DNA from: a virus
Lineage: Duplodnaviria; Heunggongvirae; Uroviricota; Caudoviricetes
Reading direction: 5' to 3' (one strand)
IMG/VR virus record: IMGVR_UViG_2545824713_000010
Length of the DNA stretch: 36,682 nt
Numbering within the stretch: the stretch's first letter is position 1; every line of letters starts with the position of its first letter. Shown here one piece after another: positions 7,907 through 36,682 of this stretch. A model generated the notes under the pieces. That model searched no databases. It was not told where the DNA came from and was given only the letters and a program-made list of their open reading frames with translations. The position numbers were made by a program, and so were the translations under genes.

Positions 7907-8866
7907 ATGAAAATTTGTATCGACGACGGCTCCACCAACATCAAGCTGGCATGGACTGAGAACGGCGAACGCCGCAACGCCATCAGCCCGAACAGCTTCA
8001 AGTCGGAATGGTCTGCGCCGTTCGGTGGCACGCAGCCCGCGAACTACATGCTTGATGGCGTGCGCTATGGTTTTGATCCGGTCAGCGATCGCTTTGTCCA
8101 GACGACCGACACGCAATACCAGTACAGTGATGTGAATGTCATTGCCATTCATCACGCGCTGGTCAAATCAGGCATCACGCCACAGGAGGTGGATGTGGTT
8201 GTCACCCTGCCACTGAGCGAGTATTTCGACACAAACGCACAGCCGGACATAGCCAACATCAACCGCAAAAAAGCGAACGTTATGCGCCCGGTGGAGTACC
8301 AGAACGGCGAAGCATTCACTATCCGTAACGTGCGGGTTATGCCTGAATCCATTCCGGCTGGCTTTAAGGCACTGGCTGACATGAGTCCGTTTGAATCCCT
8401 GCTGATTGTGGATTTGGGCGGAACCACGCTGGATGTGGCAAAGGTTCAGGGGCAGCTGGCAGGTATCAGCCAGGTGTTTTGCGATCCACACGTAGGCGTT
8501 TCCCTGATGGCTGATGCCGTGCTGTCGGTGATGGCCACTAACGGTATGCGTACCAGTCACCACATCGCCAATACCATTATTGAGCACCGTCACGATGAAG
8601 CCTGGCTGCGCCAGCACATTCACAATGACGCGCATTACAACAGCCTGATGGCGGTTATTCGTGAAAAGGAGGAGACACTGAAACAACGAGTGATCCGCGC
8701 GCTGGCGGGTTTTTCCGGTTACGGGCGGGTGATGGTTGTCGGTGGAGGGGCGGAGATTGTGGCACCCGCTATCCGCGAAGCCTGCGGAGTTAATGCGACT
8801 TTCATCACGGACGGGGTGCCACATTTTGCTCTGGTTAATGGGCTGTACGCAATGAACAAGGAGTAA
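7907..8866 (+). CDS. parM: ParM/StbA-family actin-like ATPase
   Basis: 319 aa; N-terminus MKICIDDGSTNIKLAW closely matches plasmid R1 ParM/StbA as recalled (FIDDGSTNIKLQW), and YSDVNVIAIHHAL resembles the R1 WQYSDVNVVAVHHAL region; length equals ParM; RBS aagga. Confidence 0.8.
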   Translation: MKICIDDGSTNIKLAWTENGERRNAISPNSFKSEWSAPFGGTQPANYMLDGVRYGFDPVSDRFVQTTDTQYQYSDVNVIAIHHALVKSGITPQEVDVVVTLPLSEYFDTNAQPDIANINRKKANVMRPVEYQNGEAFTIRNVRVMPESIPAGFKALADMSPFESLLIVDLGGTTLDVAKVQGQLAGISQVFCDPHVGVSLMADAVLSVMATNGMRTSHHIANTIIEHRHDEAWLRQHIHNDAHYNSLMAVIREKEETLKQRVIRALAGFSGYGRVMVVGGGAEIVAPAIREACGVNATFITDGVPHFALVNGLYAMNKE

Positions 8867-8870
8867 ACCA

Positions 8871-9182
8871 ATGACGACACCAACCAGAAGAATAAGTTTC
8901 TATCTGAAGCCAGCTGCCGTCAAGAACGAAGGAGAAGCATGCGCCTGGCTGGACAGCCTTACACCAGAAGCCCGCAAAAGCGGCCAACGCGTGGCTTTTC
9001 TGGCCGGGCTGGCACTTCTGAAGACGAATCCGGCAGAGGCTTACCGACTGGCCGCATGGGCTGATGATGAGATGTTACCTGTGACACAAATCAGCTCAAA
9101 AAAGTTTGAAGCACAGTCTGCACCAGTGGCTAAGATAACCAGCCAGATGGCTGGGAATATCCGGGCGTTATTTCCTGAGTAA
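8871..9182 (+). CDS. parR: ParR-like ribbon-helix-helix adaptor
   Basis: 103 aa directly after parM. RISFYLKP and LDSLTPEARKSGQRVAFLAGLAL parallel R1 ParR (RTIAFKLNP, LDSIPQGERSRLNRAALTAGLAL) as recalled from memory. Confidence 0.55.
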   Translation: MTTPTRRISFYLKPAAVKNEGEACAWLDSLTPEARKSGQRVAFLAGLALLKTNPAEAYRLAAWADDEMLPVTQISSKKFEAQSAPVAKITSQMAGNIRALFPE

Positions 9183-21511: not shown

Positions 21512-23794
21512 ATGAGTACCACAACACGAAAATTTAAAACCGTTATCACCGATACGGGTGCAAAAAAATTAGCTCAGGCAGCCGCGCCAGATGGTAAGCC
21601 TGTCCGCCTGACTCATATGGCCGTGGGCGACGGTGGCGGCACGTTGCCCACACCAGACAGTAAGCAGACCCGTCTGGTGCATGAGGTGTGGCGACACACT
21701 GTTAATCGCGTCATCCTGGACGCAACACATCAGAACCGCATTATTGCGGAGCTGGTTATTCCTCCTGAAACGGGCGGATTCTGGATCCGGGAAATTGGTG
21801 TATTTGATGAGCACGGCGATTTAATCGCGGTGGGCAATACTGCCGAAAGTTACAAGCCAGCCGTTGCCGAAGGGTCCGGTCGTGCACAAACGTTTCGCAC
21901 CATTCTGACCGTATCCAGCACTGCCACCGTGGCGCTTACCGTGGATAACACCATGGTGATGGCCACAGTGGATTACGTGGATGACAAACTGAAAGAGCAT
22001 GAACGGTCACGACATCACCCGGACGCCTCGCTGACCGCAAAAGGCTTTGTTCAACTCAGTAGCGCCACTAACAGCGTGTCTGAAACGCAGGCTGCAACGC
22101 CGAAAGCAGTAAAGGCAGCATATGACCTGGCTAATGGCAAATACACCGCACAGGACGCTACCACTGCGCGGAAAGGGATAGTTCAGCTCAGTAGCGCCAC
22201 CAACAGCACGTCTGAAACGCAGGCTGCAACGCCGAAAGCAGTAAAGACCGCGTATGATCTTGCTAACGGTAAATATACTGCGCAGGATGCCAGCACGACG
22301 CGAAAAGGCCTTGTCCAGCTCAGTAGCGCCACCAACAGCACGTCTGAAGCGCAGGCTGCAACGCCGAAAGCAGTAAAGGCCGCGTATGACCTTGCTAGCG
22401 CAAAATATACCGCTCAGGACGCCACGACGACACAAAAAGGGATAGTCCAGCTCAGTAGTGCCACCAACAGCACGTCTGAAACACTGGCCGCGACACCGAA
22501 AGCGGTTAAGGCGGTAATGGATGAAACGAACAAGAAAGCGCCTTTAAACAGTCCTGCGCTGACCGGAACGCCAACAACGCCAACTGCGCCAAAAGGGACT
22601 AATAATACTCAGATCGCAAGCACGGCTTATGTGATGGCCGCGATTGCCGCACTTGTAGACTCGTCGCCTGACGCACTGAATACGCTGAACGAGCTGGCGG
22701 CGGCGCTGGGCAACGACCCGAATTTTGCGACCACCATGACTAAAGCGCTTGCGGGTAAGCAACCGAAAGATGCCACCCTGACGGCGCTGGCCGGGCTTGC
22801 TACTGCGGCAGACAAGTTTCCGTATTTTACGGGGAATGATGTCGCCAGCCTGGCAACTCTGACAAAAGTCGGGCGGGATATTCTTGCGAAATCGACCGTT
22901 GCCGCTGTTATCGAATACCTCGGTTTACAGGAAATGGTAAACAGGGCCAGGAACGCGGTGCAAAAGAATGGCGATACCTTGTCCGGTGGGCTTACTTTTG
23001 CAAACGACTCAATCCTTGCCTGGATTCGAAATACTGACTGGGCAAAGATTGGTTTTAAAAATGATGCTGACAGCGATACTGATTCATTCATGTGGTTTGA
23101 AACAGGCGACAACGGCAATGAATATTTCAAATGGAGAAGCCGCCAGGGCACCACAACAAAAGACCTGATGACGCTGAAATTGAATGCACTAAATATTCTG
23201 GTTAATGCCGTCATTAATGGCAGTCTTGGAGTTGGTACAACGAATGCGTTAGGTGGTAGCTCAATTGTTCTTGGTGATAATGATACCGGATTTAAACAGA
23301 ATGGTGATGGTATTCTGGATGTTTACGCTAATAGTCAGCGAGTATTCCGCTTTCAGAATGGAGTTGCTATTGCTTTTAAAAACATTCAGGCAGGTGATAG
23401 TAAAAAGTTCTCGCTATCCAGCTCCAACACCTCCACAAAGAATGCAACGTTTAATTTATGGGGTGCTTCAACCCGTCCAGTAGTTGCAGAGTTAGGCGAT
23501 GAGGCAGGATGGCATTTCTATAGCCAGCGAAATACAGATAACTCGGTAATATTTTCTGTTAACGGTCAGATACAGCCCAGCAACTGGGGGAATTTTGATT
23601 CACGCTATGTAAAAGATGTTCGCCTGGGTACGCGTGTTGTTCAATTGATGGCGCGTGGTGGTCGTTATGAAAAAGCCGGACACGCAATTACCGGATTAAG
23701 AATCATTGGTGAAGTAGATGGCGATGATGAAGCCATCTTCAGACCAATACAAAAATACATCAATGGCACATGGTATAACGTCGCACAGGTGTAA
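21512..23794 (+). CDS. H: Tail fibre protein, P2 gpH-like, with constant N-terminal part and invertible C-terminal receptor-binding part
   Basis: 760 aa; four tandem 43-aa repeats; crossover site inside the gene at 22908..22933; C-terminus ends INGTWYNVAQV, like the alternative segment. Confidence 0.9.
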   Translation: MSTTTRKFKTVITDTGAKKLAQAAAPDGKPVRLTHMAVGDGGGTLPTPDSKQTRLVHEVWRHTVNRVILDATHQNRIIAELVIPPETGGFWIREIGVFDEHGDLIAVGNTAESYKPAVAEGSGRAQTFRTILTVSSTATVALTVDNTMVMATVDYVDDKLKEHERSRHHPDASLTAKGFVQLSSATNSVSETQAATPKAVKAAYDLANGKYTAQDATTARKGIVQLSSATNSTSETQAATPKAVKTAYDLANGKYTAQDASTTRKGLVQLSSATNSTSEAQAATPKAVKAAYDLASAKYTAQDATTTQKGIVQLSSATNSTSETLAATPKAVKAVMDETNKKAPLNSPALTGTPTTPTAPKGTNNTQIASTAYVMAAIAALVDSSPDALNTLNELAAALGNDPNFATTMTKALAGKQPKDATLTALAGLATAADKFPYFTGNDVASLATLTKVGRDILAKSTVAAVIEYLGLQEMVNRARNAVQKNGDTLSGGLTFANDSILAWIRNTDWAKIGFKNDADSDTDSFMWFETGDNGNEYFKWRSRQGTTTKDLMTLKLNALNILVNAVINGSLGVGTTNALGGSSIVLGDNDTGFKQNGDGILDVYANSQRVFRFQNGVAIAFKNIQAGDSKKFSLSSSNTSTKNATFNLWGASTRPVVAELGDEAGWHFYSQRNTDNSVIFSVNGQIQPSNWGNFDSRYVKDVRLGTRVVQLMARGGRYEKAGHAITGLRIIGEVDGDDEAIFRPIQKYINGTWYNVAQV
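22042..22525 (+). repeat. Four tandem ~129-bp coding repeats (KG.VQLSSATNS.SETQAATPKAVKAAYDLANGKYTAQDA)
   Basis: Repeats start near 22042, 22175, 22304 and 22436; typical phage tail-fibre repeat. Confidence 0.75.
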
Positions 23795-24325
23795 ATGATG
23801 CAGCATTTAAAAAATATTAAGTCAGGAAATCCAAAAACAAAAGAGCAATATCAGCTAACAAAGAATTTTGATGTTATCTGGTTATATACAGAAGACGGTA
23901 AAAACTGGTATGAGGAAGTGAAAAACTTTCAGCCAGACACAATAAAGATTGTTTACGATGCAAATAATATTATTGTCGCCATCACTAAAGATGCCTCCAC
24001 GCTTAACCCTGAAGGTTTTAGCGTCGTTGAGGTTCCCGATATTACAGCCAACCGCCGCGCTGATGATTCAGGAAAGTGGATGTTTAAGGATGGAGCTGTA
24101 GTTAAACGGATTTATACGGCAGACGAACAGCAACAACAGGCCGAATCACAAAAGGCCGCGTTGATTTCCGAAGCTGAATCAGTCATCCAGCCGCTGGAAC
24201 GCGCTGTCAGGCTGAATATGGCAACAGACGAGGAACGCACACGACTGGAAGCATGGGAACGCTACAGCGTTCTGGTCAGCCGTGTGGATACGGCAAATCC
24301 TGAATGGCCACAAAAGCCTGAATAA
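23795..24325 (+). CDS. G: Tail fibre assembly chaperone, P2 gpG-like
   Basis: 176 aa (P2 G is 175 aa); conserved N-terminal half shared with the inverted paralogue. Confidence 0.85.
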
Positions 24326-24330
24326 AAATT

Positions 24331-24350
24331 AAGGCCCGATAGCGGGCCTT
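24331..24350. terminator. Bidirectional hairpin between convergent chaperone genes (aaggcccg atag cgggcctt)
   Basis: Perfect 8-bp GC-rich stem in the 28-bp spacer between the two convergent genes. Confidence 0.45.
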
Positions 24351-24353
24351 GTT

Positions 24354-24887
24354 TCATTCTGGTTGTTCTGGAAACGTTACTGGCAGGCTGGAGGTGTCTG
24401 TGGATTCGACCTTCTGCGCATAGAGCATCCACTCGGTTAATTTTTGTTTATTCTCGTTGGAAATGATACCCAGCCGTAGCTGTGAGTCCCATAGCTGGGT
24501 TTTATCCCTGACGAGCTGTAGCAGGCTTTGCTTTTCATTTTCCGCTTGTTGCCTCTGCTCTTCCTCGGTATAAGTTCGCTTTATCACTACGCCATCTTTG
24601 AACATCCATTTCCCCGAAATATCAGCCCGGCGATTTGCTGTAATATCAGGTAATTCAACGACGCTTGCACCCTCTGGATTAATTGCTGAAACATCCTTTT
24701 CAATACAAATAATAACGCCGTTATGGTCATAGACCATTTTCAAAGTGTCTGGCTGGAAATTCTTTTGTTCCTCATACCAGTTTTTTCCATCATCTGAATA
24801 AAGCCATTTGATGTTAAATTGCTTTGTTAGCTGGTATTGCTCTTTTGTTTTAGGGTTGCCAGCAGTAATGTTTTTTAAGTGCATCAT
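24354..24887 (-). CDS. Alternative tail fibre assembly chaperone (G', Mu U'-like)
   Basis: 177 aa; N-terminal half near-identical to G ([29 protein letters not shown]), C-terminal half divergent. Confidence 0.8.
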   Translation of the reverse strand: MMHLKNITAGNPKTKEQYQLTKQFNIKWLYSDDGKNWYEEQKNFQPDTLKMVYDHNGVIICIEKDVSAINPEGASVVELPDITANRRADISGKWMFKDGVVIKRTYTEEEQRQQAENEKQSLLQLVRDKTQLWDSQLRLGIISNENKQKLTEWMLYAQKVESTDTSSLPVTFPEQPE

Positions 24888-24889
24888 CG

Positions 24890-25834
24890 TTAAATACTCC
24901 CCGCGTTATACCACGTCCCATTAATGCAATACTGAATTGGCCTTGCCTGAGTTGTATCAATTAATTCATCACGGTTTCCGTTAACTGAACCCGTAACGAC
25001 ATAACCTGACCTGTCAGACCAGCCGGGACCATTCCATGTCTGAACAGATGACAGACCGCCAAGGCGAATACCTGTAATAAACCTTGAGTTACATTCTGCC
25101 TGCGTATATGCTCCAACATCTCCCGCAGAGGGTTTGCGGGTTGTGGTGTAAAACTCTGACCAGTCAGCTTCAAAGCCATAACCATCTCGCGCTGAACGAT
25201 AATAAATACCGCCGTTCTTATAATTCACACGGAACTGAACCGCCGGGCAACTCCCCGCATTCATATTAAAGTGAAGAATCAATGTTGACGCTCCACTAAT
25301 AGTCGCATTATAAACGCCGCTATTTGAGTTCCATCCAACAGCTTTGTCATTTCCAACAGTGCTTCCTGTCTGCCCTAAAGCAAATGCAGGCTGCTGGTTT
25401 TTCGTGTTGTAGTCTCTTCGCCAGCCAGGAGCATAAGCATTACCATGATTAATATAGGTGAATTGAGCGTTAGTAATTCCGCCACCGCTGGATGTACTCG
25501 GCGTAGTAACGCGTATGGTCATTGCGCCGCGAGTGCCAATAACTTCCACCACAGCACCTGCAAGACAAATATTTCCGCAACCTGTATCTGTAATGACCTT
25601 ATTGTTTGCATAAGCCCATGAGCCTTTGCACATCCAGTAAGGATGGTTAAATGCCCCCTGACTCTCCAGCCACGAAATGAATTGTGCGGTTGTCCAGGTC
25701 TGACTATCGCCACCAATATTCAGCCATGCGCTATATGCGCGGCAGGCACCAATATTTTTGGTGAAGGTATCTTTTCCTGGAATATCTGCGCCGTTCTGTT
25801 TTTTCTGTAATGCGCCAGAAGCCTGATTTACCGT
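24890..25834 (-). CDS. Alternative tail-fibre C-terminal segment (Hv'), no own start; expressed only after inversion fuses it to the H constant part
   Basis: Open frame continuous from the right crossover site to the stop at 24890 (track ORF 24890..25633); ends QYCINGTWYNAGSI, parallel to the H C-terminus. Confidence 0.7.
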   Translation of the reverse strand, partial: TVNQASGALQKKQNGADIPGKDTFTKNIGACRAYSAWLNIGGDSQTWTTAQFISWLESQGAFNHPYWMCKGSWAYANNKVITDTGCGNICLAGAVVEVIGTRGAMTIRVTTPSTSSGGGITNAQFTYINHGNAYAPGWRRDYNTKNQQPAFALGQTGSTVGNDKAVGWNSNSGVYNATISGASTLILHFNMNAGSCPAVQFRVNYKNGGIYYRSARDGYGFEADWSEFYTTTRKPSAGDVGAYTQAECNSRFITGIRLGGLSSVQTWNGPGWSDRSGYVVTGSVNGNRDELIDTTQARPIQYCINGTWYNAGSI

Positions 25835-25914
25835 TTCCTGTAAACCGAGGTTTTAGATAATGGCCGTTTCTGGCCTGCATGGCATGATTTGCGCTTTTGG
25901 ACGGGAGATTCAGT

Positions 25915-26505
25915 GTGCTGATTGGCTATGTAAGGGTATCAACAAATGACCAGAATACAGACCTGCAACGAAACGCTCTTGTTTGTGCAGGATGTGAACA
26001 AATATTTGAAGATAAATTAAGCGGGACAAAGACTGACCGACCGGGATTAAAACGCGCTTTAAAGCGCCTTCAACAAGGTGACACGCTGGTTGTCTGGAAA
26101 CTGGATCGCCTCGGGCGAAGCATGAAACATCTGATTTCTCTCGTCGGGGAACTACGGGAGCGAGGGATTAATTTTCGCAGTCTGACCGACAGCATAGATA
26201 CATCTTCTCCAATGGGGCGTTTTTTCTTCCACGTGATGGGTGCCCTGGCTGAAATGGAACGTGAATTAATTGTTGAACGTACACTGGCCGGACTGGCGGC
26301 AGCGCGCGCACGGGGGCGCACAGGCGGACGTCGACCGAAGCTGACAAAAGAACAGCATGAGCAAATAGCAAGGCTGATTAAAAACGGTCACGACAGAAAA
26401 CAACTGGCAATAATTTACAGCATTGGTATATCGACAATTTATCGTTACCACCCCGCAGGAGAATCAAGTGGAACAATTGAGAAGAGTAAACAAAATAACC
26501 GCTAA
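25915..26505 (+). CDS. Serine DNA invertase, Hin/Gin/Cin/Pin family
   Basis: GTG start gives MLIGYVRVSTNDQNTDLQRNAL, strongly matching e14 Pin / Hin as recalled; catalytic-serine motif VRVST and a C-terminal HTH. Confidence 0.85.
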   Translation: MLIGYVRVSTNDQNTDLQRNALVCAGCEQIFEDKLSGTKTDRPGLKRALKRLQQGDTLVVWKLDRLGRSMKHLISLVGELRERGINFRSLTDSIDTSSPMGRFFFHVMGALAEMERELIVERTLAGLAAARARGRTGGRRPKLTKEQHEQIARLIKNGHDRKQLAIIYSIGISTIYRYHPAGESSGTIEKSKQNNR

Positions 26506-32109: not shown

Positions 32110-32266
32110 AGCTTCAGCCCCTTGTATCCGTTAAATGATTCGGCAACAATCATCACCCACCACGCGCGTAATCTCACCCCCTGCGCCGTTCTCCCGCCAC
32201 GGCGACAACAAAAAGCAGTAACCCCCTCCGCACGCACATGCGACCATGCCGCACAGGGAGGGAAAG

Positions 32267-33376
32267 ATGACCGACACCACCATGCAATTGCTCAGTCAGA
32301 GCACAGACCCCGTGAAAATGCCGGATTTTGATATTCTCGCGGAGGGGGAAACGCTGTCCGGCGTGGCAGAGCGCCTGATGAGTCTGTCACTGACCGACAA
32401 CCGGGGATTTGAAGCGGACCAGCTCACCATCACGCTGGATGATGCGGATGGTCAGTTGCAGCTACCGCCACGGGGCGCGCGCCTGACGGTTCTCATTGGC
32501 TGGAAAGGAGAACCGCTGACAGAAAAAGGCACTTACATTGTTGATGAAATCGCTCACGAAGGACCGCCGGACAGGCTGACGGTTTCAGCCAGAAGCGCAG
32601 ATTTTCGGGGTGAATTTAACGTTAAACGTGAGGTGTCCTGGCATGATGTGACCGTTGAGCGAGTGGTATCCGCCATCGCTCATCGGTACGGTCTGAAACC
32701 GCAAATCAGCGAAATGCTGATGGATATCGAAATCGACCACGCCGACCAGACCGAAGAAAGTGACATGTCCTTCCTTACGCGCATGGCGGAAATGCTGGGC
32801 GCAATCACCACGGTAAAAAGCGGTAATCTGTTATTCATCATGCCCGGCGGTGGCGTGAACGCACAGGGCCAGCCGTTGCCATCGTTCGCCATCACACGCA
32901 GCAGCGGCGATCGCCATCAGTTTCGCATTGCTGACCGCGAGGCGTATACGGGGGTACGCGCTTACTGGCTTGATCTTAATTACGGGAAAAAGAAAAAAGT
33001 CAGCGTGAAACGCCGCAAACCGCCAAAACCCAAAAAGGAGAAAAGCAGCAGCCGTGAAGGTGATTATATGGAAGGCGCAGAAGGCAATGTGTTTGTGTTA
33101 CGCAAGACTTATCAGAACGAGCAGGCAGCAAGACGCGCAGCAGCGGCAAAATGGCAGCAGCTACAACGCGGAGCCGCATCATTCTCCATCACGCTGGCGC
33201 GTGGACGCGCAGAACTCTATCCCGAAATGCATGGCACGGTGAAAGGCTTCAAAAGTGACATCGACAATCAGGACTGGATTATTGCAAAAGCTGAGCACAC
33301 CATTGATAACAGCGGCTTTACCACACAGCTTGAGCTTGAGGCAAAAATCCCGGAATGGATAGCGGAAACAGAGTGA
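32267..33376 (+). CDS. D: Tail protein D (late control gene D family)
   Basis: ORF 32246..33376; the ATG at 32267 has RBS gggaggg; about 369 aa. Confidence 0.85.
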   Translation: MTDTTMQLLSQSTDPVKMPDFDILAEGETLSGVAERLMSLSLTDNRGFEADQLTITLDDADGQLQLPPRGARLTVLIGWKGEPLTEKGTYIVDEIAHEGPPDRLTVSARSADFRGEFNVKREVSWHDVTVERVVSAIAHRYGLKPQISEMLMDIEIDHADQTEESDMSFLTRMAEMLGAITTVKSGNLLFIMPGGGVNAQGQPLPSFAITRSSGDRHQFRIADREAYTGVRAYWLDLNYGKKKKVSVKRRKPPKPKKEKSSSREGDYMEGAEGNVFVLRKTYQNEQAARRAAAAKWQQLQRGAASFSITLARGRAELYPEMHGTVKGFKSDIDNQDWIIAKAEHTIDNSGFTTQLELEAKIPEWIAETE

Positions 33377-33418: not shown

Positions 33419-33679
33419 ATGTTCCGTTGTCCGCTTTGTGGCGCATCTGCCCGTATCCGCACCAGTCGTCCGGAAAATGATTCAAACACCGTGCGGCAAA
33501 AGTATTACCAGTGTAACAACCTGGAATGCGGCGTATGCTTCTCAACACTGGAAGCCTTCCATAAATTCACATCGAAACACGCCTCCGGCGTTCACTCATC
33601 AGAAGGTATTCCGTGGCATGAGCTGCCAGCTTCACACAGGGGAAACAATCAGATGAGTTTGCCTTTACCTCAGAATTAA
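33419..33679 (+). CDS. ogr: Ogr/Delta-type zinc-finger late-gene activator
   Basis: MFRCPLCGA...YYQCNNLECG gives a C-x2-C...C-x4-C zinc motif matching P2 Ogr as recalled (MFHCPLC...YHQCQNVNC). Confidence 0.8.
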   Translation: MFRCPLCGASARIRTSRPENDSNTVRQKYYQCNNLECGVCFSTLEAFHKFTSKHASGVHSSEGIPWHELPASHRGNNQMSLPLPQN

Positions 33680-33767
33680 CAGGCAGAATTGCCGGAGTAA
33701 CAAAAAAGCGATAGATTACGTGCGGGTGCCTTTCGGCTGATGGTCGGAGGGAATACCCGAAGGCCAG

Positions 33768-33953
33768 ATGTGGAAAGGCCCCGAGTCAACTTTAACGTTA
33801 ACCCGAGGCCCTAACCATCTACCCTTAGCAAGTGATAGGTTAGCGCCTCCCCGAAAAAGGAGCAAGCGCTATGTCGCAAAAATCGCTTACGGCCATCACG
33901 TTCTGCGTGACGGCAATCCTCATCATCTGGATGCTGCACGGTTCGCTGTGTGA
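33768..33953 (+). CDS. Possible mok-like overlapping reading frame of the hok-like locus
   Basis: 61-aa ORF in a different frame that overlaps the hok-like start, the arrangement seen for mok/hok; weak evidence. Confidence 0.3.
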   Translation: MWKGPESTLTLTRGPNHLPLASDRLAPPRKRSKRYVAKIAYGHHVLRDGNPHHLDAARFAV

Positions 33954-34011
33954 AATACGGATGAGCTTCTGGGGAGCGGAGTTTGCGGCGTTCTTACAGT
34001 GTAAGCAGTAA
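33871..34011 (+). CDS. Hok/Gef-family type I toxin-like small membrane protein (46 aa)
   Basis: MSQKSLTAITFCVTAILIIWMLHGSLCEIRMSFWGAEFAAFLQCKQ: a hydrophobic helix then SLCEIR and EFAAF, matching Hok (KSLCEIR...EVAAF) as recalled; RBS aaggag; below the ORF-track cutoff. Confidence 0.6.
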   Translation: MSQKSLTAITFCVTAILIIWMLHGSLCEIRMSFWGAEFAAFLQCKQ

Positions 34012-34020
34012 GGAAACCGC

Positions 34021-34042
34021 GACGGGGGAGTAATCCCCCGTC
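34021..34042 (+). terminator. Stable hairpin after the hok-like stop (gacggggga gtaa tcccccgtc)
   Basis: Perfect 9-bp GC stem immediately 3' of the toxin ORF; no clear U-tract. Confidence 0.4.
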
Positions 34043-34188
34043 AATCAGTTGCCGGGATAAGGTCGATAAGGCATCCTGTCTCACTCTATACCAGCTAATC
34101 AATTGACACATATCAATAAAAAGCCTGATAAAATCAAAATATTTTGTTACAAATGTCAGCTAGTAGAGGGCCAAAGGAGGCAGATTAT

Positions 34189-34521
34189 ATGGCATTAATC
34201 AAATGTCCTGAATGCCAGAAAGAGGTGATCGATTCAGTATTGTCTTGCCCTGCTTGTGGCAAACAACTGAAAAATCTTAAACGCTCATTTTTTGGAGAAC
34301 TCATTAAGTGTTTTTTTATATTATTTAATATTTTTATAATCTACACGATTTGTATTGGGCTAAGAGAGGTGGGTGAAATAATAAACAACGCCACATCCGA
34401 TGTCGAAAAAGCCGGTACAGTTATTGGTACGGGCTTAGGTTTAATTGCTATTGGAGGCTTATGGGTTATTGGCAATATCATTATCGGAAATTTAGTATTT
34501 CTTACTAAACCAAAGGGATAA
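34189..34521 (+). CDS. Zinc-ribbon membrane protein (CPEC...CPAC then two TM segments)
   Basis: ATG with RBS aaggagg; AT-rich gene; the N-terminal C-x2-C-x13-C-x2-C is followed by hydrophobic and Gly-rich helices. Confidence 0.55.
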   Translation: MALIKCPECQKEVIDSVLSCPACGKQLKNLKRSFFGELIKCFFILFNIFIIYTICIGLREVGEIINNATSDVEKAGTVIGTGLGLIAIGGLWVIGNIIIGNLVFLTKPKG

Positions 34522-34525
34522 CAAA

Positions 34526-35419
34526 ATGAAAAATGTGATTATTTCTATAGGCGCATCATTTATATCAATTAGTGTGCTACCTGCTCACGCAGCAACTGAG
34601 CATAATAACTTTAAGTCATCACTCCAGTGCCGAGCAATAGAAAATAATAAAGAAAGACTTTCTTGTTATGATAAGTCAATACAACCGACTCGAACGACAG
34701 TTGCTGAAAAATTCGAAAGCAGAGATCAATGCCCTGATGAGAAAGATGATGACAGACGTTTATCTTGTTATGACCGTTTTTTTTCTCCAACATTTACTCC
34801 GCCTGTAAGCTCAAAATCTAAAGTGAAACAGCTAGTAACAACAGAGACTCAGCAACCAAATCTTTCTGAGATATCTAAATGTCGAGCAGAAAACGATAAA
34901 GAAACTAGAGTAAACTGCTACGATAAACTATTTTCACAGGAAAAAGCTACGCAATCTAAATCAAAATTAGAGAAAGCCACAGACTCAGGAAAATGGCACA
35001 CATCCATTACTACATCGCCAATTGATGATTCGAAAAATGTAATTTTATCGTTAGAAAGTGATGATTATATAAGAACTCCATTTGGAGAAGCGGTTACCCC
35101 TACTCTGTTTATAGCTTGCCGAGAAAAGAAAACCGAAGTATTTCTTAATTGGGATGTATATTTAGGCCTTGAACAAACCAGCATGCTGTATCGCCTTGAT
35201 AAACAGAAAGCAGTTGAGCGAAACTGGCTAGTATCTACAGATACAAAGGCTGTTTTTTATAAAGGCAATGACATTAACTTCATCAGAAAACTAGCCAACT
35301 CAAACAAAATGTATGCAAGAATAACCCCTTATAATGAAAGCCCTGTAAGTGCAACTTTCAATTTAAACGGCCTGTCAACCACGCTAAAACCGCTTCAAGA
35401 AGCCTGTAACTGGAAATAG
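34526..35419 (+). CDS. Secreted/periplasmic protein with three Cys-pair repeats (C-x9-11-R/V-x-CYD)
   Basis: N-terminal signal peptide ending AHA-ATE; repeats LQCRAIENNKERLSCYDK, QCPDEKDDDRRLSCYDR and KCRAENDKETRVNCYDK; AT-rich. Confidence 0.6.
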   Translation: MKNVIISIGASFISISVLPAHAATEHNNFKSSLQCRAIENNKERLSCYDKSIQPTRTTVAEKFESRDQCPDEKDDDRRLSCYDRFFSPTFTPPVSSKSKVKQLVTTETQQPNLSEISKCRAENDKETRVNCYDKLFSQEKATQSKSKLEKATDSGKWHTSITTSPIDDSKNVILSLESDDYIRTPFGEAVTPTLFIACREKKTEVFLNWDVYLGLEQTSMLYRLDKQKAVERNWLVSTDTKAVFYKGNDINFIRKLANSNKMYARITPYNESPVSATFNLNGLSTTLKPLQEACNWK

Positions 35420-35447
35420 TATAAATCATGCGGCTAAGCCACAATCA

Positions 35448-35487
35448 CAGATAACACAAAGCCCGTGAAAACGGGCTTTGTGTTATC
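35448..35487. terminator. 17-bp perfect inverted repeat hairpin (agataacacaaagcccg tgaaaa cgggctttgtgttatct)
   Basis: Read directly from the sequence; lies between the last cargo gene and the attR core. Confidence 0.5.
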
Positions 35488-35501
35488 TATAACTCGAAAA
35501 T

Positions 35502-35519: not shown

Positions 35520-35686
35520 TGCGCCGATACAAATCCTTTTATATCAAAAAGTTAAATCAACATCTTTTTCATCAACAAGGATTTTCACGTTTGTGTTACC
35601 TGTATGAGACGAGAGTTAACCGGACAAGTGTGCCATAATCTCGCGGCCAGGCATACTTGCGAAGATTTCAGGTATAAGGATACGTA

Positions 35687-36682
35687 ATGATACAACCTAT
35701 TTCCGGCCCTCCTCCTGGGCAACCACCAGGTCAGGGAGATAACCTGCCGTCTGGCGCGGGCAATCAGCCTTTATCCAGTCAGCAACGTACTTCGCTGGAA
35801 AGCTTAATGACGAAAGTGACCTCACTGACGCAACAACAAAGAGCAGAACTGTGGGCGGGTATCAGGCACGATATTGGTCTGTCGGGAGATTCACCGCTGC
35901 TTTCGCGTCACTTCCCTGCCGCTGAGCATAATCTGGCGCAACGTCTGCTGGCCGCGCAAAAAAGCCATTCTGCCCGCCAGCTTTTAGCGCAATTAGGGGA
36001 GTATTTACGTCTGGGGAATAATCGTCAGGCGGTCACGGATTATATCCGTCATAACTTTGGTCAGACGCCGCTGAATCAGCTCTCACCGGAGCAATTAAAA
36101 ACCATTCTCACCCTGTTGCAGGAAGGGAAGATGGTTATTCCGCAACCACAGCAGCGCGAGGCGACCGACCGTCCTTTATTACCGGCGGAGCACAATGCGC
36201 TAAAACAGCTGGTGACCAAACTTGCGGCGGCAACGGGGGAACCCAGCAAACAGATCTGGCAATCGATGCTGGAACTTTCCGGGGTGAAAGATGGCGAGTT
36301 AATTCCAGCGAAACTGTTTAACCATCTGGTGACCTGGTTGCAGGCGCGCCAGACGTTAAGCCAGCAAAATACGCCGACGCTGGAATCACTACAGATGGCG
36401 CTAAAACAACCTTTAGATGCCAGTGAACTGGCGGCGTTATCGGCATATATCCAGCAAAAATATGGCCTTTCTGCGCAATCATCGCTTTCTTCTGCCCAGG
36501 CCGAGGATATTCTTAATCAGCTTTATCAACGGCGGGTTAAAGGGATTGATCCGCGTGATATGCAACCGCTGCTTAATCCTTTTCCACCGATGATGGACAC
36601 GTTGCAAAATATGGCAACGCGTCCCGCGCTGTGGATACTGTTAGTCGCGATTATCCTGATGCTGGTCTGGCTGGTTCGTTAG
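35687..36682 (+). CDS. flk: Host chromosomal gene, Flk-like flagellar regulator (C-terminal membrane anchor)
   Basis: 331 aa; Pro/Gln-rich N-terminus and a single C-terminal TM helix (ALWILLVAIILMLVWLV); matches enterobacterial Flk as recalled; stop codon is at the window end. Confidence 0.55.
   Translation: MIQPISGPPPGQPPGQGDNLPSGAGNQPLSSQQRTSLESLMTKVTSLTQQQRAELWAGIRHDIGLSGDSPLLSRHFPAAEHNLAQRLLAAQKSHSARQLLAQLGEYLRLGNNRQAVTDYIRHNFGQTPLNQLSPEQLKTILTLLQEGKMVIPQPQQREATDRPLLPAEHNALKQLVTKLAAATGEPSKQIWQSMLELSGVKDGELIPAKLFNHLVTWLQARQTLSQQNTPTLESLQMALKQPLDASELAALSAYIQQKYGLSAQSSLSSAQAEDILNQLYQRRVKGIDPRDMQPLLNPFPPMMDTLQNMATRPALWILLVAIILMLVWLVR

Follow-up and report, generated by a model that had tools for sequence, protein, structure and literature searches.

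The window, the whole 36,682-nucleotide stretch of DNA that we analysed, holds a P88/P2-like E. coli prophage bearing a 1.4-kb AT-rich cassette of two co-oriented genes, with ogr and hok as neighbours on one side and attR and flk on the other (Table 1). The original prediction had described these two open reading frames as having visibly lower GC, and measurement agrees: the GC content of the cassette is 0.362 as against 0.532 for window positions 1-34084, and the cassette is the minimum-GC 1.4-kb stretch of the whole window (the runner-up has 0.434). GC at third codon positions is 0.31 in the first cassette gene and 0.27 in the second, compared with 0.60 for gpD. The limits of the cassette were set by comparison with related phages and chromosomes. 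On the left, homology to phages Chuche and PhiR44_2 breaks at 34084, the window position (about query position 685) at which E. coli genome matches to the ogr-hok end also stop, and on the right homology to Chuche resumes at 35493. A search at 34085/35492 for flanking direct or inverted repeats, the signature of a mobile cassette, found none.

Homology to E. coli K-12 begins at window position 35566, and the 20 bp that start there are a direct repeat (20/20) of the attL side of the same prophage in NZ_CP097001.1. Because of this junction and this repeat, the earlier placement of the genes just inside attR is correct; attR lies downstream of them, which rules out that the region is outside the prophage. 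The slot that they occupy lies between hok and attP and the cassette is therefore found just inside attR in the prophage. A housekeeping host operon is likewise ruled out, as the empty pdxB-flk site of K-12 is without the cassette. That the genes are horizontally acquired cargo is upheld by their position between ogr/hok and the attR core, by their absence from the empty K-12 site, by their presence in deposited phage genomes and by the polymorphism of the slot in otherwise syntenic phages. The cassette is a self-contained two-gene accessory operon (moron) of a P88/P2-like temperate phage.

Strong ribosome binding sites had been predicted for both genes. This holds for the first, where AAAGGAGG lies 7 nt before the ATG, and less so for the second, whose AAGGGA is weaker. 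The longest open reading frame of the first gene opens further upstream, at a TTG (34144). Reading the sequence by eye we noted a candidate promoter composed of TTGACA (34103-34108) and an extended -10-like TGATAAAAT (34126-34134), with a non-canonical spacing of 20 nt between the -35 element and TAAAAT; it was not reported by a sigma-70 consensus scan upstream of the cassette. Late-gene status was rejected since no Ogr-type late promoter element (TGT-N12-ACA) was found upstream of the cassette. Beyond the second gene, 30 nt past the stop codon, a perfect 18-bp stem with a 4-nt loop folds at -36.6 kcal/mol (z = -7.1 versus shuffles). This hairpin is strong but without a clear U-tract, and may be terminator-like or protect the 3' end.

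Table 1 Features of the cassette and its borders, in window coordinates.
Feature	Position	Strand	Basis or remark
AT-rich accessory cassette (moron)	34085-35492		variable slot between hok and attP/attR
Candidate sigma-70 promoter	34103-34134	+	read off the sequence by eye
110-aa inner-membrane protein gene	34189-34521	+	ATG start; topology inferred from the positive-inside rule
C4 zinc ribbon of the 110-aa protein	34198-34269 (aa 4-27)	+	CPEC-x10-CPAC
297-aa exported VasI/TagO-family protein gene	34526-35419	+	begins 4 nt after the first stop
Predicted Sec signal peptide of the 297-aa protein	34526-34591 (aa 1-22)	+	hydropathy and sequence
Three C-x11-CYD units	34628-34924	+	regular-expression search and AF2
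C-x11-CYD unit 1	34628-34672 (aa 35-49)	+
C-x11-CYD unit 2	34730-34774 (aa 69-83)	+
T8 homopolymer tract within the 297-aa gene	34777-34784	+	T7 in the 98%-identical copy, frame shifted
C-x11-CYD unit 3	34880-34924 (aa 119-133)	+
Predicted C-terminal IalB-like beta-sandwich domain	34973-35416 (aa 150-297)	+	invariant pair C198/C294
Terminator-like or 3'-protective hairpin	35449-35488	+	inverted-repeat search; RNA fold
attR core	35566-35585		TTTTCATCAACAAGGATTTT; overlaps the first pdxB codons (pdxB on the minus strand)

The two encoded proteins

The N-terminal zinc ribbon and the two transmembrane helices predicted for the 110-aa protein were both recovered. The ribbon matches Pfam Zn_Ribbon_1 with an E value of 2.3e-5 (24.5 bits, just below the cutoff of 25) and its four cysteines are invariant among 12 homologues. 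Between the hydrophobic segments (approximately aa 38-59 and 78-105) is a loop of some 20 aa that includes a conserved SDxExAG, and the protein ends with TKPKG at its C-terminus. From the distribution of positive charges we infer that the ribbon and both termini are cytoplasmic and that the loop of about 20 residues is periplasmic. The protein matches PHROG 6586 (E 7e-32), which is annotated as of unknown function, and its homologues, 57-80% identical, occupy the same position in prophages of Klebsiella, Dickeya, Brenneria, Salmonella, Enterobacter and Raoultella, with a mean column identity of 79% in the alignment. A word-indexed search retrieved close E. coli relatives only; the full profile search was broader and gave 253 representatives at E <= 1e-10, many of which consist of the two transmembrane segments only and have no Pfam family. 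We also considered the divisome protein DrpB (YedR) as a possible identity and rejected it: the score on NCBIfam NF038392 is 16.7 bits against a cutoff of 50 (E 0.007), hhalign with E. coli DrpB gives a probability of 29% (E 6e-4), and a Pfam search of ten of the relatives with two transmembrane segments only found no match, to DrpB or otherwise.

The family of the 297-aa protein had not been recognised from the sequence. Profile searches change this, as the protein is a clear member of the Pfam family VasI (PF11319), scoring 87.6 bits (gathering threshold 26.5) over three matched stretches, the best of which (aa 118-296) spans model positions 1-184 of 184. RefSeq names it "T6SS-associated protein TagO" and it falls in PHROG 1848, annotated as of unknown function. 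Hydropathy and the AF2 model agree with the original prediction of a signal-peptide protein with a beta-rich C-terminal domain. The predicted Sec signal has a hydrophobic core at aa 5-20 and a predicted cleavage site between AHA and A; a lipobox is absent from the N-terminus, and the signal pattern is common to all homologues in the alignment. The three cysteine repeats are present as predicted, with a different spacing: each is exactly C-x11-CYD instead of C-x9-11-CYD.

AF2 modelling with a 74-sequence alignment of homologues gave the model used here (single-sequence AF2 gave a pLDDT of 47). With model helices at H29-35/H41-51, H75-85 and H113-120/H125-135, each C-x11-CYD unit is drawn as a helical hairpin, and a disulfide probably joins its two cysteines. 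The third unit alone is universal, homologues having one, two or three units, and its cysteines C119 and C131 are invariant in the 74 sequences, as are C198 and C294. The C-terminal domain is beta-rich with a pLDDT above 90 and, as modelled, has the fold of IalB. Foldseek retrieved similar folds in uncharacterised proteins of the lytic T4-like phages RB16, KP15, Aeromonas 65.2 and Vibrio VH7D, and a search of PDB sequences with the cassette protein gave nothing significant. The fold is a generic binding sandwich and points to no ligand.

Distribution among phages and relation to type VI secretion

Among deposited phages the cassette is carried by Xuanwuvirus P884B11, PhiR44_2, Citrobacter phiSM and 500465-2. 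The 297-aa protein is 88-90% identical in E. coli/Citrobacter phages and 63% identical in Klebsiella phages (e.g. 3LV2017). The phiSM copy has already been named as prophage cargo by Magaziner et al. 2019 (PMC6456863). Close homologues lie directly after ogr in P2-like prophages across the Enterobacterales, namely of E. coli, Klebsiella, Raoultella, Dickeya, Pectobacterium, Brenneria, Pantoea and Salmonella at many integration sites, and the same pair of genes occurs in Klebsiella and Dickeya prophages integrated elsewhere. When the same position was compared in related prophages it was found to be empty, to hold Com plus a DNA methyltransferase (Com/Mom-like), or to hold the cassette. It is empty in most P88-like prophages and in those at serS, ihfA and tRNA-Leu; the Com/Mom-like pair is found in Chuche and in some chromosomes, and other chromosomes hold a RES toxin plus the cassette. 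The deposited genomes of Chuche and P88 are without the cassette.

The gene for the 110-aa partner is present in most enterobacterial loci. Its pairing with the VasI-like gene is not obligatory, because the latter is found without it in Pectobacterium and Pantoea prophages. In another E. coli prophage lineage the partner is swapped for an unrelated protein with a zinc ribbon and a TM2 domain (Pfam TM2, 68.4 bits), and in Izhakiella a gene for a similar zinc-ribbon protein with two transmembrane segments follows the VasI-like gene. An analogous zinc-ribbon membrane partner has been recruited independently.

More distant relatives occur in other temperate phages, including phages of Brucella, Roseibium and Pasteurella, and in variable islands, some of them rich in defence genes. 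In Brucella phage BiPBO1 the VasI-family gene begins 8 nt after, and in the same orientation as, a gene for a CI/LexA-type repressor (HTH_3 plus Peptidase_S24). Just after the repressor is where exclusion genes classically lie, lambda rexAB being an example. In Pasteurella phage Pmp14 tail genes surround the homologue. A VasI-like relative in Pseudomonas viridiflava is flanked by an OLD-family nuclease and GmrSD, one in Shewanella adjoins TerB-N/TerB-C and helicase genes that match the Shango models, and one in Photobacterium adjoins a Csx1/CARF gene; DruH, BrxC/D and SIR2 are also among the neighbours of distant relatives. The association of these distant relatives with defence islands is suggestive; however, it has no background control, defence neighbours could be mapped to only 3 of 18 loci, and nine of ten large neighbours examined one by one were without a defence match. 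The cassette proteins themselves were compared with PADLOC-DB v2: its defence models gave no match to the zinc-ribbon protein and a chance-level hit to Cas1e alone (E 0.019) for the VasI-like protein.

Within E. coli, the allele of the window is rare and intact, being found at 99% identity or more in 2 of 5426 genomes. A 98%-identical copy on plasmid p204446_146 of enterotoxigenic E. coli (ETEC), where a fragment of the prophage end persists, has a 1-nt deletion in the T8 tract that splits the open reading frame, and carries C47Y in addition. In the O6:H16 chromosomal copies of the same 98% class an extra "hypothetical protein" is annotated between the two genes. Because of the frameshifted plasmid copy and the extra open reading frame of the O6:H16 copies, the 297-aa protein looks dispensable in those lineages.

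The RefSeq name raises the question of type VI secretion (T6SS). The 297-aa protein scores 72.6 bits on TIGR03360, below the equivalog cutoff of 124.2, and other members of the prophage clade score 36-78 bits, as against 257.4 bits for the genuine T6SS-2 TagO of E. coli Sakai, ECs_0222, to which the 297-aa protein is only 22% identical. A T6SS TagO/VasI gene typically lies between clpV/vasH and tssA/tssM. We searched 42 related loci (up to 8 kb) by tblastn for TssB, C, F, G, K, L and M, ClpV and Hcp and found none. By this sub-cutoff score and by the absence of T6SS core genes from the 42 loci, the protein is not a T6SS TagO equivalog. Judged from sequence and gene neighbourhood, the prophage clade is independent of type VI secretion genes and is recurrent cargo of temperate phages. 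This indicates that the T6SS label over-reaches when applied to the prophage copies, which form a separate clade, T6SS-linked in none of the 42 loci. That the cassette encodes a VasI/TagO-superfamily protein and is a moron can, the two taken together, be held with high confidence.

Possible functions of the cassette

As a whole, the locus is best explained as a foreign two-gene prophage cassette with an envelope-level exclusion role in the lysogen, a proposal that we make tentatively and rate somewhat short of an even chance. The exclusion role taken on its own is argued from context and by analogy, and we regard it as possible and rather doubtful. The cassette would be transcribed in the lysogen from its own promoter and not as part of the Ogr-dependent late regulon. 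Lysogenic expression is suggested by the lack of an Ogr-type motif, by the repressor-adjacent homologue of BiPBO1 and by a figure cited in Magaziner 2019 (PMC6456863), according to which about 90% of the prophage genes of C. rodentium are transcribed. The 297-aa protein would be exported by Sec and be soluble and oxidised in the periplasm. There, on the outer side of the inner membrane, it would work together with its zinc-ribbon partner as a binding or adaptor module that has no enzymatic activity. A functional pairing of the two is suggested by the presence of the partner in most enterobacterial loci and by the analogous zinc-ribbon partners found elsewhere. The cassette of the lysogen might then intercept something that crosses the periplasm, for instance the tip of a superinfecting phage or its DNA conduit, a tailocin or a T6SS spike. 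In function, such exclusion would resemble that by proteins of the T4 Imm/Sp or P22 Sie type.

A more general form of this proposal, to which we give a low probability, takes the VasI/TagO fold for a periplasmic module of general use, one that engages contractile injection devices on their way across the envelope. In T6SS clusters it is the firing cell that would benefit from the fold. After capture by temperate phages, in many cases along with a zinc-ribbon anchor of two transmembrane segments and with the cysteine hairpins multiplied, the fold would shield lysogens from incoming phage tails, tailocins or T6SS spikes.

Other roles have to be weighed against these. The protein could be a host-interaction or envelope-fitness factor, a periplasmic or inner-membrane-associated IalB-like protein that changes the envelope (adhesion or invasion, resistance to stress, homeostasis of the cell wall or of division) and so benefits the lysogen in the gut instead of protecting it against phages. 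The cassette is indeed frequent in ETEC and other pathotypes, the IalB-domain protein RgsG is an essential periplasmic protein of the growth zone in Sinorhizobium (PMC7327166), and the 110-aa partner weakly resembles DrpB. The Pfam IalB match is nevertheless below threshold (16.5 versus 22.1 bits), the DrpB link is unconvincing for the reasons given above, and ETEC itself holds frameshifted alleles. The cassette is also found in the environmental and plant-associated genera Pectobacterium, Dickeya, Brenneria and Shewanella, which counts against a role specific to animal hosts, and we consider an envelope-fitness function unlikely. We think it quite unlikely that the prophage protein acts in trans as a T6SS accessory, enhancing the T6SS of the host or giving it new targets. 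This role is implied by the RefSeq name and by the 2019 Citrobacter paper, which treats the phiSM VasI protein as a T6SS virulence factor (PMC6456863), and it draws on the PF11319 homology, on a hairpin and beta-domain architecture like that of ECs_0222 and on the T6SSs that many E. coli, Klebsiella and Citrobacter hosts possess. V. cholerae VCA0118 is dispensable for secretion of Hcp and VgrG-1 and needed for amoeba killing and for full killing of E. coli (PMC3166118), a phenotype pattern that fits an add-on factor. Against it stand the TIGR03360 score and the low identity to T6SS-2 TagO, the absence of T6SS core genes from all 42 clade loci, the relatives in phages of Brucella, Roseibium and Pasteurella, and the zinc-ribbon partner gene, for which the Sakai T6SS cluster, the only one examined, has no comparable position.

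The pair of a periplasmic and a small inner-membrane protein also recalls lysis-control pairs, and a role in the phage lytic cycle (lysis timing, spanin or endolysin action, protection of progeny from debris, or genome delivery) would be consistent with the place of the Pmp14 homologue among tail genes and with the Foldseek-similar proteins of lytic T4-like phages. Yet the cassette is optional, as the empty slots of most P88-like prophages and the genomes of Chuche and P88 demonstrate, it lies outside the late operons without an Ogr-type promoter element, and its base composition is foreign; we hold a lytic role to be improbable. It is more improbable still that the cassette is a neutral or decaying hitchhiker with no current selective function, linked to an int/attP module that targets pdxB. 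Of the 237 E. coli genomes with most of the cassette, at least 225 do have it beside flk, and the frameshifted plasmid copy with C47Y and the prophage-end fragment kept on the ETEC plasmid look like decay. However, across genera, at 35-66% identity, homologues of the 297-aa protein are intact open reading frames with invariant cysteines and core residues, the 110-aa partner is strongly conserved, the pair recurs in prophages of Klebsiella and of Dickeya whose integration sites differ, and an analogous partner has been recruited independently.

Prophage copies of the gene travel with temperate phages of several families, usually with a conserved zinc-ribbon partner, and VasI-like cassettes will be miscounted in genome surveys of prophage "T6SS genes" or "virulence cargo". 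To learn what the VasI/TagO fold binds, a small, portable pair of genes for expression in any E. coli offers a convenient system. Prophage-encoded defences would gain a periplasmic class should the cassette turn out to work by exclusion or against injection, and if it shields the lysogen as proposed, it would provide a new envelope-level exclusion or immunity system together with a two-gene handle on TagO/VasI function. If the exclusion proposal is false, the cassette is an ordinary moron.

Comparison with known systems

Superinfection exclusion offers the nearest likeness in mode of action. T4 Imm/Sp, P22 SieA and lambda RexAB may be compared with the cassette in the pairing of a small inner-membrane protein with one facing the periplasm, superinfection-exclusion proteins are optional cargo as the cassette is, and the BiPBO1 homologue is placed directly downstream of a CI-type repressor as rexAB is in lambda. 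The likeness is one of how the systems might work, not of sequence or fold kinship.

By fold, the C-terminal domain of the 297-aa protein resembles IalB of Bartonella (PDB 3dtd, PF06776); IalB is an alphaproteobacterial chromosomal gene product without cysteine hairpin repeats, whereas the 297-aa protein has hairpins and is encoded in a prophage. A periplasmic ring component from the polar flagellar motor in Vibrio (PDB 8z5n chain A, by its length and name probably MotY) is 7% identical and belongs to an unrelated context; unlike it, the 297-aa protein is without an OmpA-like domain.

TagO/VasI of T6SS clusters (VCA0118 of V. cholerae, ECs_0222 of E. coli O157; PF11319, TIGR03360), whose function is still given as unknown in a 2026 review (PMC13584744), is homologous to the 297-aa protein. 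ECs_0222 shares with it the signal peptide, the C-x11-CYD hairpin with its RLxCYD motif, the beta-rich domain and a conserved C-terminal C-x-W. The two differ in that the prophage protein has three hairpins where an ordinary VasI/TagO has one, and in that its gene lies in a prophage beside a zinc-ribbon membrane partner and not in a T6SS cluster. The closest counterparts are found in phiSM, whose ORF1 is annotated "T6SS VasI family protein", and in P884B11, 500465-2, PhiR44_2 and 3LV2017, which carry the same cassette at the same position.

Genes, composition and position of the cassette

The ORF listing and direct reading agree on two co-oriented genes between hok and attR, the second starting 4 nt past the stop codon of the first (table). 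The ATG of the 110-aa gene is preceded by AAAGGAGG, and further upstream a TTGACA and an extended -10-like TGATAAAAT can be seen by eye, a candidate promoter with non-canonical spacing that the consensus scan does not report. A perfect 18-bp hairpin lies 3' of the operon (35449-35488; -36.6 kcal/mol, z -7.1). GC content is 0.362 in the cassette (34085-35492) compared to 0.532 in the remaining prophage, GC3 is 0.27-0.31 in the two genes compared to 0.60 in gpD, and no other 1.4 kb of the window is as low in GC. The stretch is compositionally foreign. A search for flanking repeats around the cassette found none.

Coordinates of the cassette genes, their neighbours and the invertible tail-fibre segment (window positions)
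Feature	Position	Strand	Place	Remarks
gpD	32246-33376		upstream of cassette	
ogr	33419-33679		upstream of cassette	Pfam Ogr_Delta
Hok/Gef toxin gene	33871-34011		upstream of cassette	46-aa ORF; Pfam HOK_GEF 29.9 bits
partner gene	34189-34521		cassette	110 aa from ATG
VasI-like gene	34526-35419		cassette	297 aa
flk	35687-36682		downstream of cassette	NCBIfam 507 bits
tail fibre gene	21512-23794		invertible segment	
tail-fibre assembly gene	23795-24325		invertible segment	
inverted alternative assembly gene	24354-24887	minus	invertible segment	
alternative fibre C-terminus	24890-25633	minus	invertible segment	
resolvase-family invertase	25897-26505		invertible segment	

The 110-aa protein contains a CPEC-x10-CPAC motif (Pfam Zn_Ribbon_1, E 2.3e-5) and two hydrophobic helices, roughly aa 38-59 and aa 78-105. 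The 297-aa protein has a Sec-type signal peptide, three motifs, all of them exactly C-x11-CYD (aa 35-49, 69-83 and 119-133), and two further cysteines, C198 and C294. It scores 87.6 bits on Pfam VasI (PF11319; gathering score 26.5), in three stretches because each motif matches the start of the model. AlphaFold2, run on 74 homologues, models every Cys motif as a helical hairpin and aa 150-297 as a beta-sandwich with pLDDT >90. One cassette product is an exported protein of the VasI/IalB fold. The original prediction had described two co-oriented genes of lower GC content, encoding a zinc-ribbon protein with two TM helices and a signal-peptide protein with three Cys-CYD repeats and a beta-rich C-terminal domain. 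Since the gene, composition and motif checks all agree, this observation is correct in every particular.

K-12 has the unoccupied site, pdxB-flk, and its homology to the window starts at 35566, where the initial 23 nt of pdxB lie (minus strand). A 20/20 repeat of TTTTCATCAACAAGGATTTT (window 35566-35585) is found at the opposite prophage end, between int and the pdxB body, in the near-identical genome NZ_CP097001.1. This repeat and the K-12 junction therefore place the cassette about 75 nt inside attR, where it had been predicted to lie; the true attR is not upstream of it. Integration is into the first codons of pdxB (window 35566-35590; L050:3416-3460 in a compared locus). The native GTG start and the upstream region stay at attR beside flk, and the pdxB body at attL, without a start codon and annotated from Met9, lies directly downstream of the phage int gene and co-oriented with it.

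Between ogr and the cassette is a hok/sok-like type I toxin-antitoxin locus (33724-34011), with an Rfam sok match of 42.7 bits, under the gathering score of 59, and a GC-rich hairpin on its 3' side (34020-34043). In RefSeq, gpD is an 801-nt gene called "contractile injection system protein, VgrG/Pvc8 family" (L001:5177-5977) that is preceded by a short pseudogene, whereas the window holds a single intact 376-aa ORF matching the full-length gpD of related phages; the short version is probably an annotation start-site problem. Elsewhere in the prophage, a plasmid-type partition pair follows the large replication gene (7907-9182; a 319-aa ParM/StbA, Pfam StbA_N 274 bits, and a 103-aa Plasmid_stab_B protein), at the site that the tin/old accessory genes occupy in P2. 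The tail-fibre genes form an invertible segment of the Mu G / P1 C type with a lower GC content of 0.41-0.47 (21512-26505).

Distribution in phages and bacterial genomes

The same two genes occupy the same place in the deposited genomes of Escherichia phage 500465-2, Xuanwuvirus P884B11, PhiR44_2 and Citrobacter phage phiSM, and are also found, at 63% protein identity, in Klebsiella phage 3LV2017 and its relatives. Phage Chuche aligns collinearly over gpD-ogr-hok as far as window 34084 and from 35493 onwards to attP-int; the interval holds Com and a DNA methyltransferase. Prophages that occupy serS, ihfA or a tRNA-Leu site have nothing in the slot, and in some flk-site prophages a RES-family toxin is inserted ahead of the cassette. 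An ogr, hok and cassette query matched 1574 of 5426 complete E. coli genomes, but the cassette itself is present in only 236-240. This is a real, foreign and optional two-gene cassette of P2-like phages; the horizontally acquired cargo originally proposed is borne out by its GC content, its carriage by phages and a slot that is empty or replaced elsewhere. Those 1574 genomes share the ogr-hok end, the hok part of which also occurs in Stx phages. A second slot of variable content lies at the junction of gpD and ogr, where a P88-like prophage of E. coli O104:H4 FWSEC0009 (L047:1900-4400) has a copy of ISKpn26 and a DUF3800 gene.

P2-like prophages at a wide range of chromosomal sites carry homologues of the 297-aa protein (38-66% identity) immediately past ogr, at their attR end; they come from Klebsiella, Raoultella, Pantoea, Dickeya, Pectobacterium, Brenneria, Salmonella and a second lineage of E. 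coli. No P2 marker genes were detectable near the homologues of Enterobacter mori, Phytobacter and Izhakiella. Unrelated temperate phages of Brucella, Roseibium, Pasteurella, Klebsiella and E. coli likewise encode the beta domain. In Brucella phage BiPBO1 (L053:2617-4034) the VasI-family gene gp67 (64 bits) starts 8 nt past the co-oriented gp68, a CI/LexA-type repressor gene (HTH_3 and Peptidase_S24), a layout which suggests that the two may be co-expressed in the lysogen. Copies of the BiPBO1 record name gp67 either "type IV secretion protein" or "TagO".

Homologues in non-enteric Gammaproteobacteria are singletons in variable regions. Scanning 125 neighbours gave three defence contexts assignable to a locus: in Pseudomonas viridiflava (L042:4900-10905) the gene has an OLD-family ATPase-nuclease (PADLOC Old, E 3.5e-63) on one side and a GmrSD type IV restriction enzyme on the other, in Shewanella it adjoins TerB-N/TerB-C and helicase genes (Shango models), and in Photobacterium a Csx1/CARF gene. 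DruH, BrxC/D and SIR2 were also found among the 125; nine of ten large neighbours checked individually gave no defence match. Taken without a background comparison, these surroundings are a hint and not a result. Of note, a small lipoprotein gene lies just upstream of the P. viridiflava singleton, in a defence-island-like setting.

The zinc-ribbon partner and the hairpins

The 110-aa partner accompanies the VasI-like gene in most enterobacterial loci (57-80% identity), with its four cysteines, a periplasmic-loop motif and a C-terminal TRPKG near-invariant. A profile search of 1.84 billion representatives returned 253 relatives at E <= 1e-10, many of them 85-100-aa proteins that match the two-TM part only and belong to no Pfam family. 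A relationship to the divisome protein DrpB was rejected, as the resemblance is faint and does not hold up.

In the second E. coli prophage lineage, at ytfP/tamB (L008:5800-9000), the partner is replaced by an unrelated 98-aa zinc-ribbon and TM2-domain protein (Pfam TM2, 68.4 bits); the slot there reads hok, zinc-ribbon/TM2 gene, bidirectional hairpin and a convergent 250-aa VasI-like gene with two Cys hairpins. Between its gpD and ogr, this prophage also has an alpha/beta-hydrolase gene as an insertion. The VasI-like gene of Izhakiella is followed by one for a similar zinc-ribbon/2-TM protein. The strongest indication that the two proteins may work together is that the pairing recurs, with zinc-ribbon two-TM proteins of two distinct families. 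The VasI-like gene can also stand alone, as in Pectobacterium and Pantoea prophages, and the pairing is hence not obligatory. Members of the clade have one, two or three hairpins, and the one adjacent to the beta domain is alone universal.

Possible role and relation to T6SS TagO

We tentatively prefer a protective role, because of the optional-cargo position, the repressor-adjacent BiPBO1 homologue and the defence-type surroundings of some distant relatives. The cassette would be expressed in the lysogen, and the exported, disulfide-bonded 297-aa protein would act with the zinc-ribbon protein at the periplasmic face of the inner membrane, excluding something that must cross the periplasm. Neither protein matches known defence models. 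A fitness factor acting on the envelope or in host interaction, in the sense of IalB, whose fold the 297-aa protein shares, is unlikely. A lytic-cycle function is very unlikely; the Ogr-type TGT-N12-ACA element is absent upstream of the cassette. That the cassette is a decaying hitchhiker seems the least probable of these readings. ETEC plasmid p204446_146 (NZ_CP025911.1; L051:9377-10290) carries a 98%-identical copy of the VasI-like gene in which a T8 tract (34777-34784) is shortened to T7, splitting it into 93-aa and 188-aa ORFs, and in which the first hairpin has a C47Y change. At the place of the frameshift, an extra ORF is annotated in chromosomal O6:H16 copies of this identity class. The T8/T7 difference could reflect decay, phase variation or a homopolymer sequencing error. 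This frameshifted copy and the lack of a defence-model match limit any strong functional claim. The 146-kb plasmid keeps a prophage-end fragment (gpD tail, ogr, hok, zinc-ribbon gene and split VasI-like gene) surrounded by IS elements, a group II intron and the parM and colicin Ia genes. Plasmids account for 9 of the 241 copies of the cassette in E. coli genomes.

A trans-acting T6SS accessory is quite unlikely, and the 297-aa protein was rejected as a T6SS protein. It scores 72.6 bits on the NCBIfam equivalog TIGR03360, under the cutoff of 124.2 (36-78 bits for five other clade members), and tblastn with nine T6SS core proteins gave no match in the 42 collected loci. Genomically, the clade is unlinked to T6SS genes, and its members turn up repeatedly in temperate phages. 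RefSeq and GenBank already include the cassette under the name TagO, and the phiSM copy was listed, without experiments, as a "T6SS VasI family protein" and predicted virulence cargo (Magaziner et al. 2019, PMC6456863); a 2026 review gives the function of TagO as "unknown" (PMC13584744). What is new here is that the TagO label is probably functionally wrong, that the clade is phage-borne and T6SS-independent, that its zinc-ribbon membrane partner is conserved yet replaceable and that the hairpin is multiplied in some members. By comparison, the T6SS-2 TagO of E. coli O157 Sakai, ECs_0222, encoded between clpV and tssA/tssM, scores 257 bits on TIGR03360, and shares with the 297-aa protein a common architecture at 22% identity.
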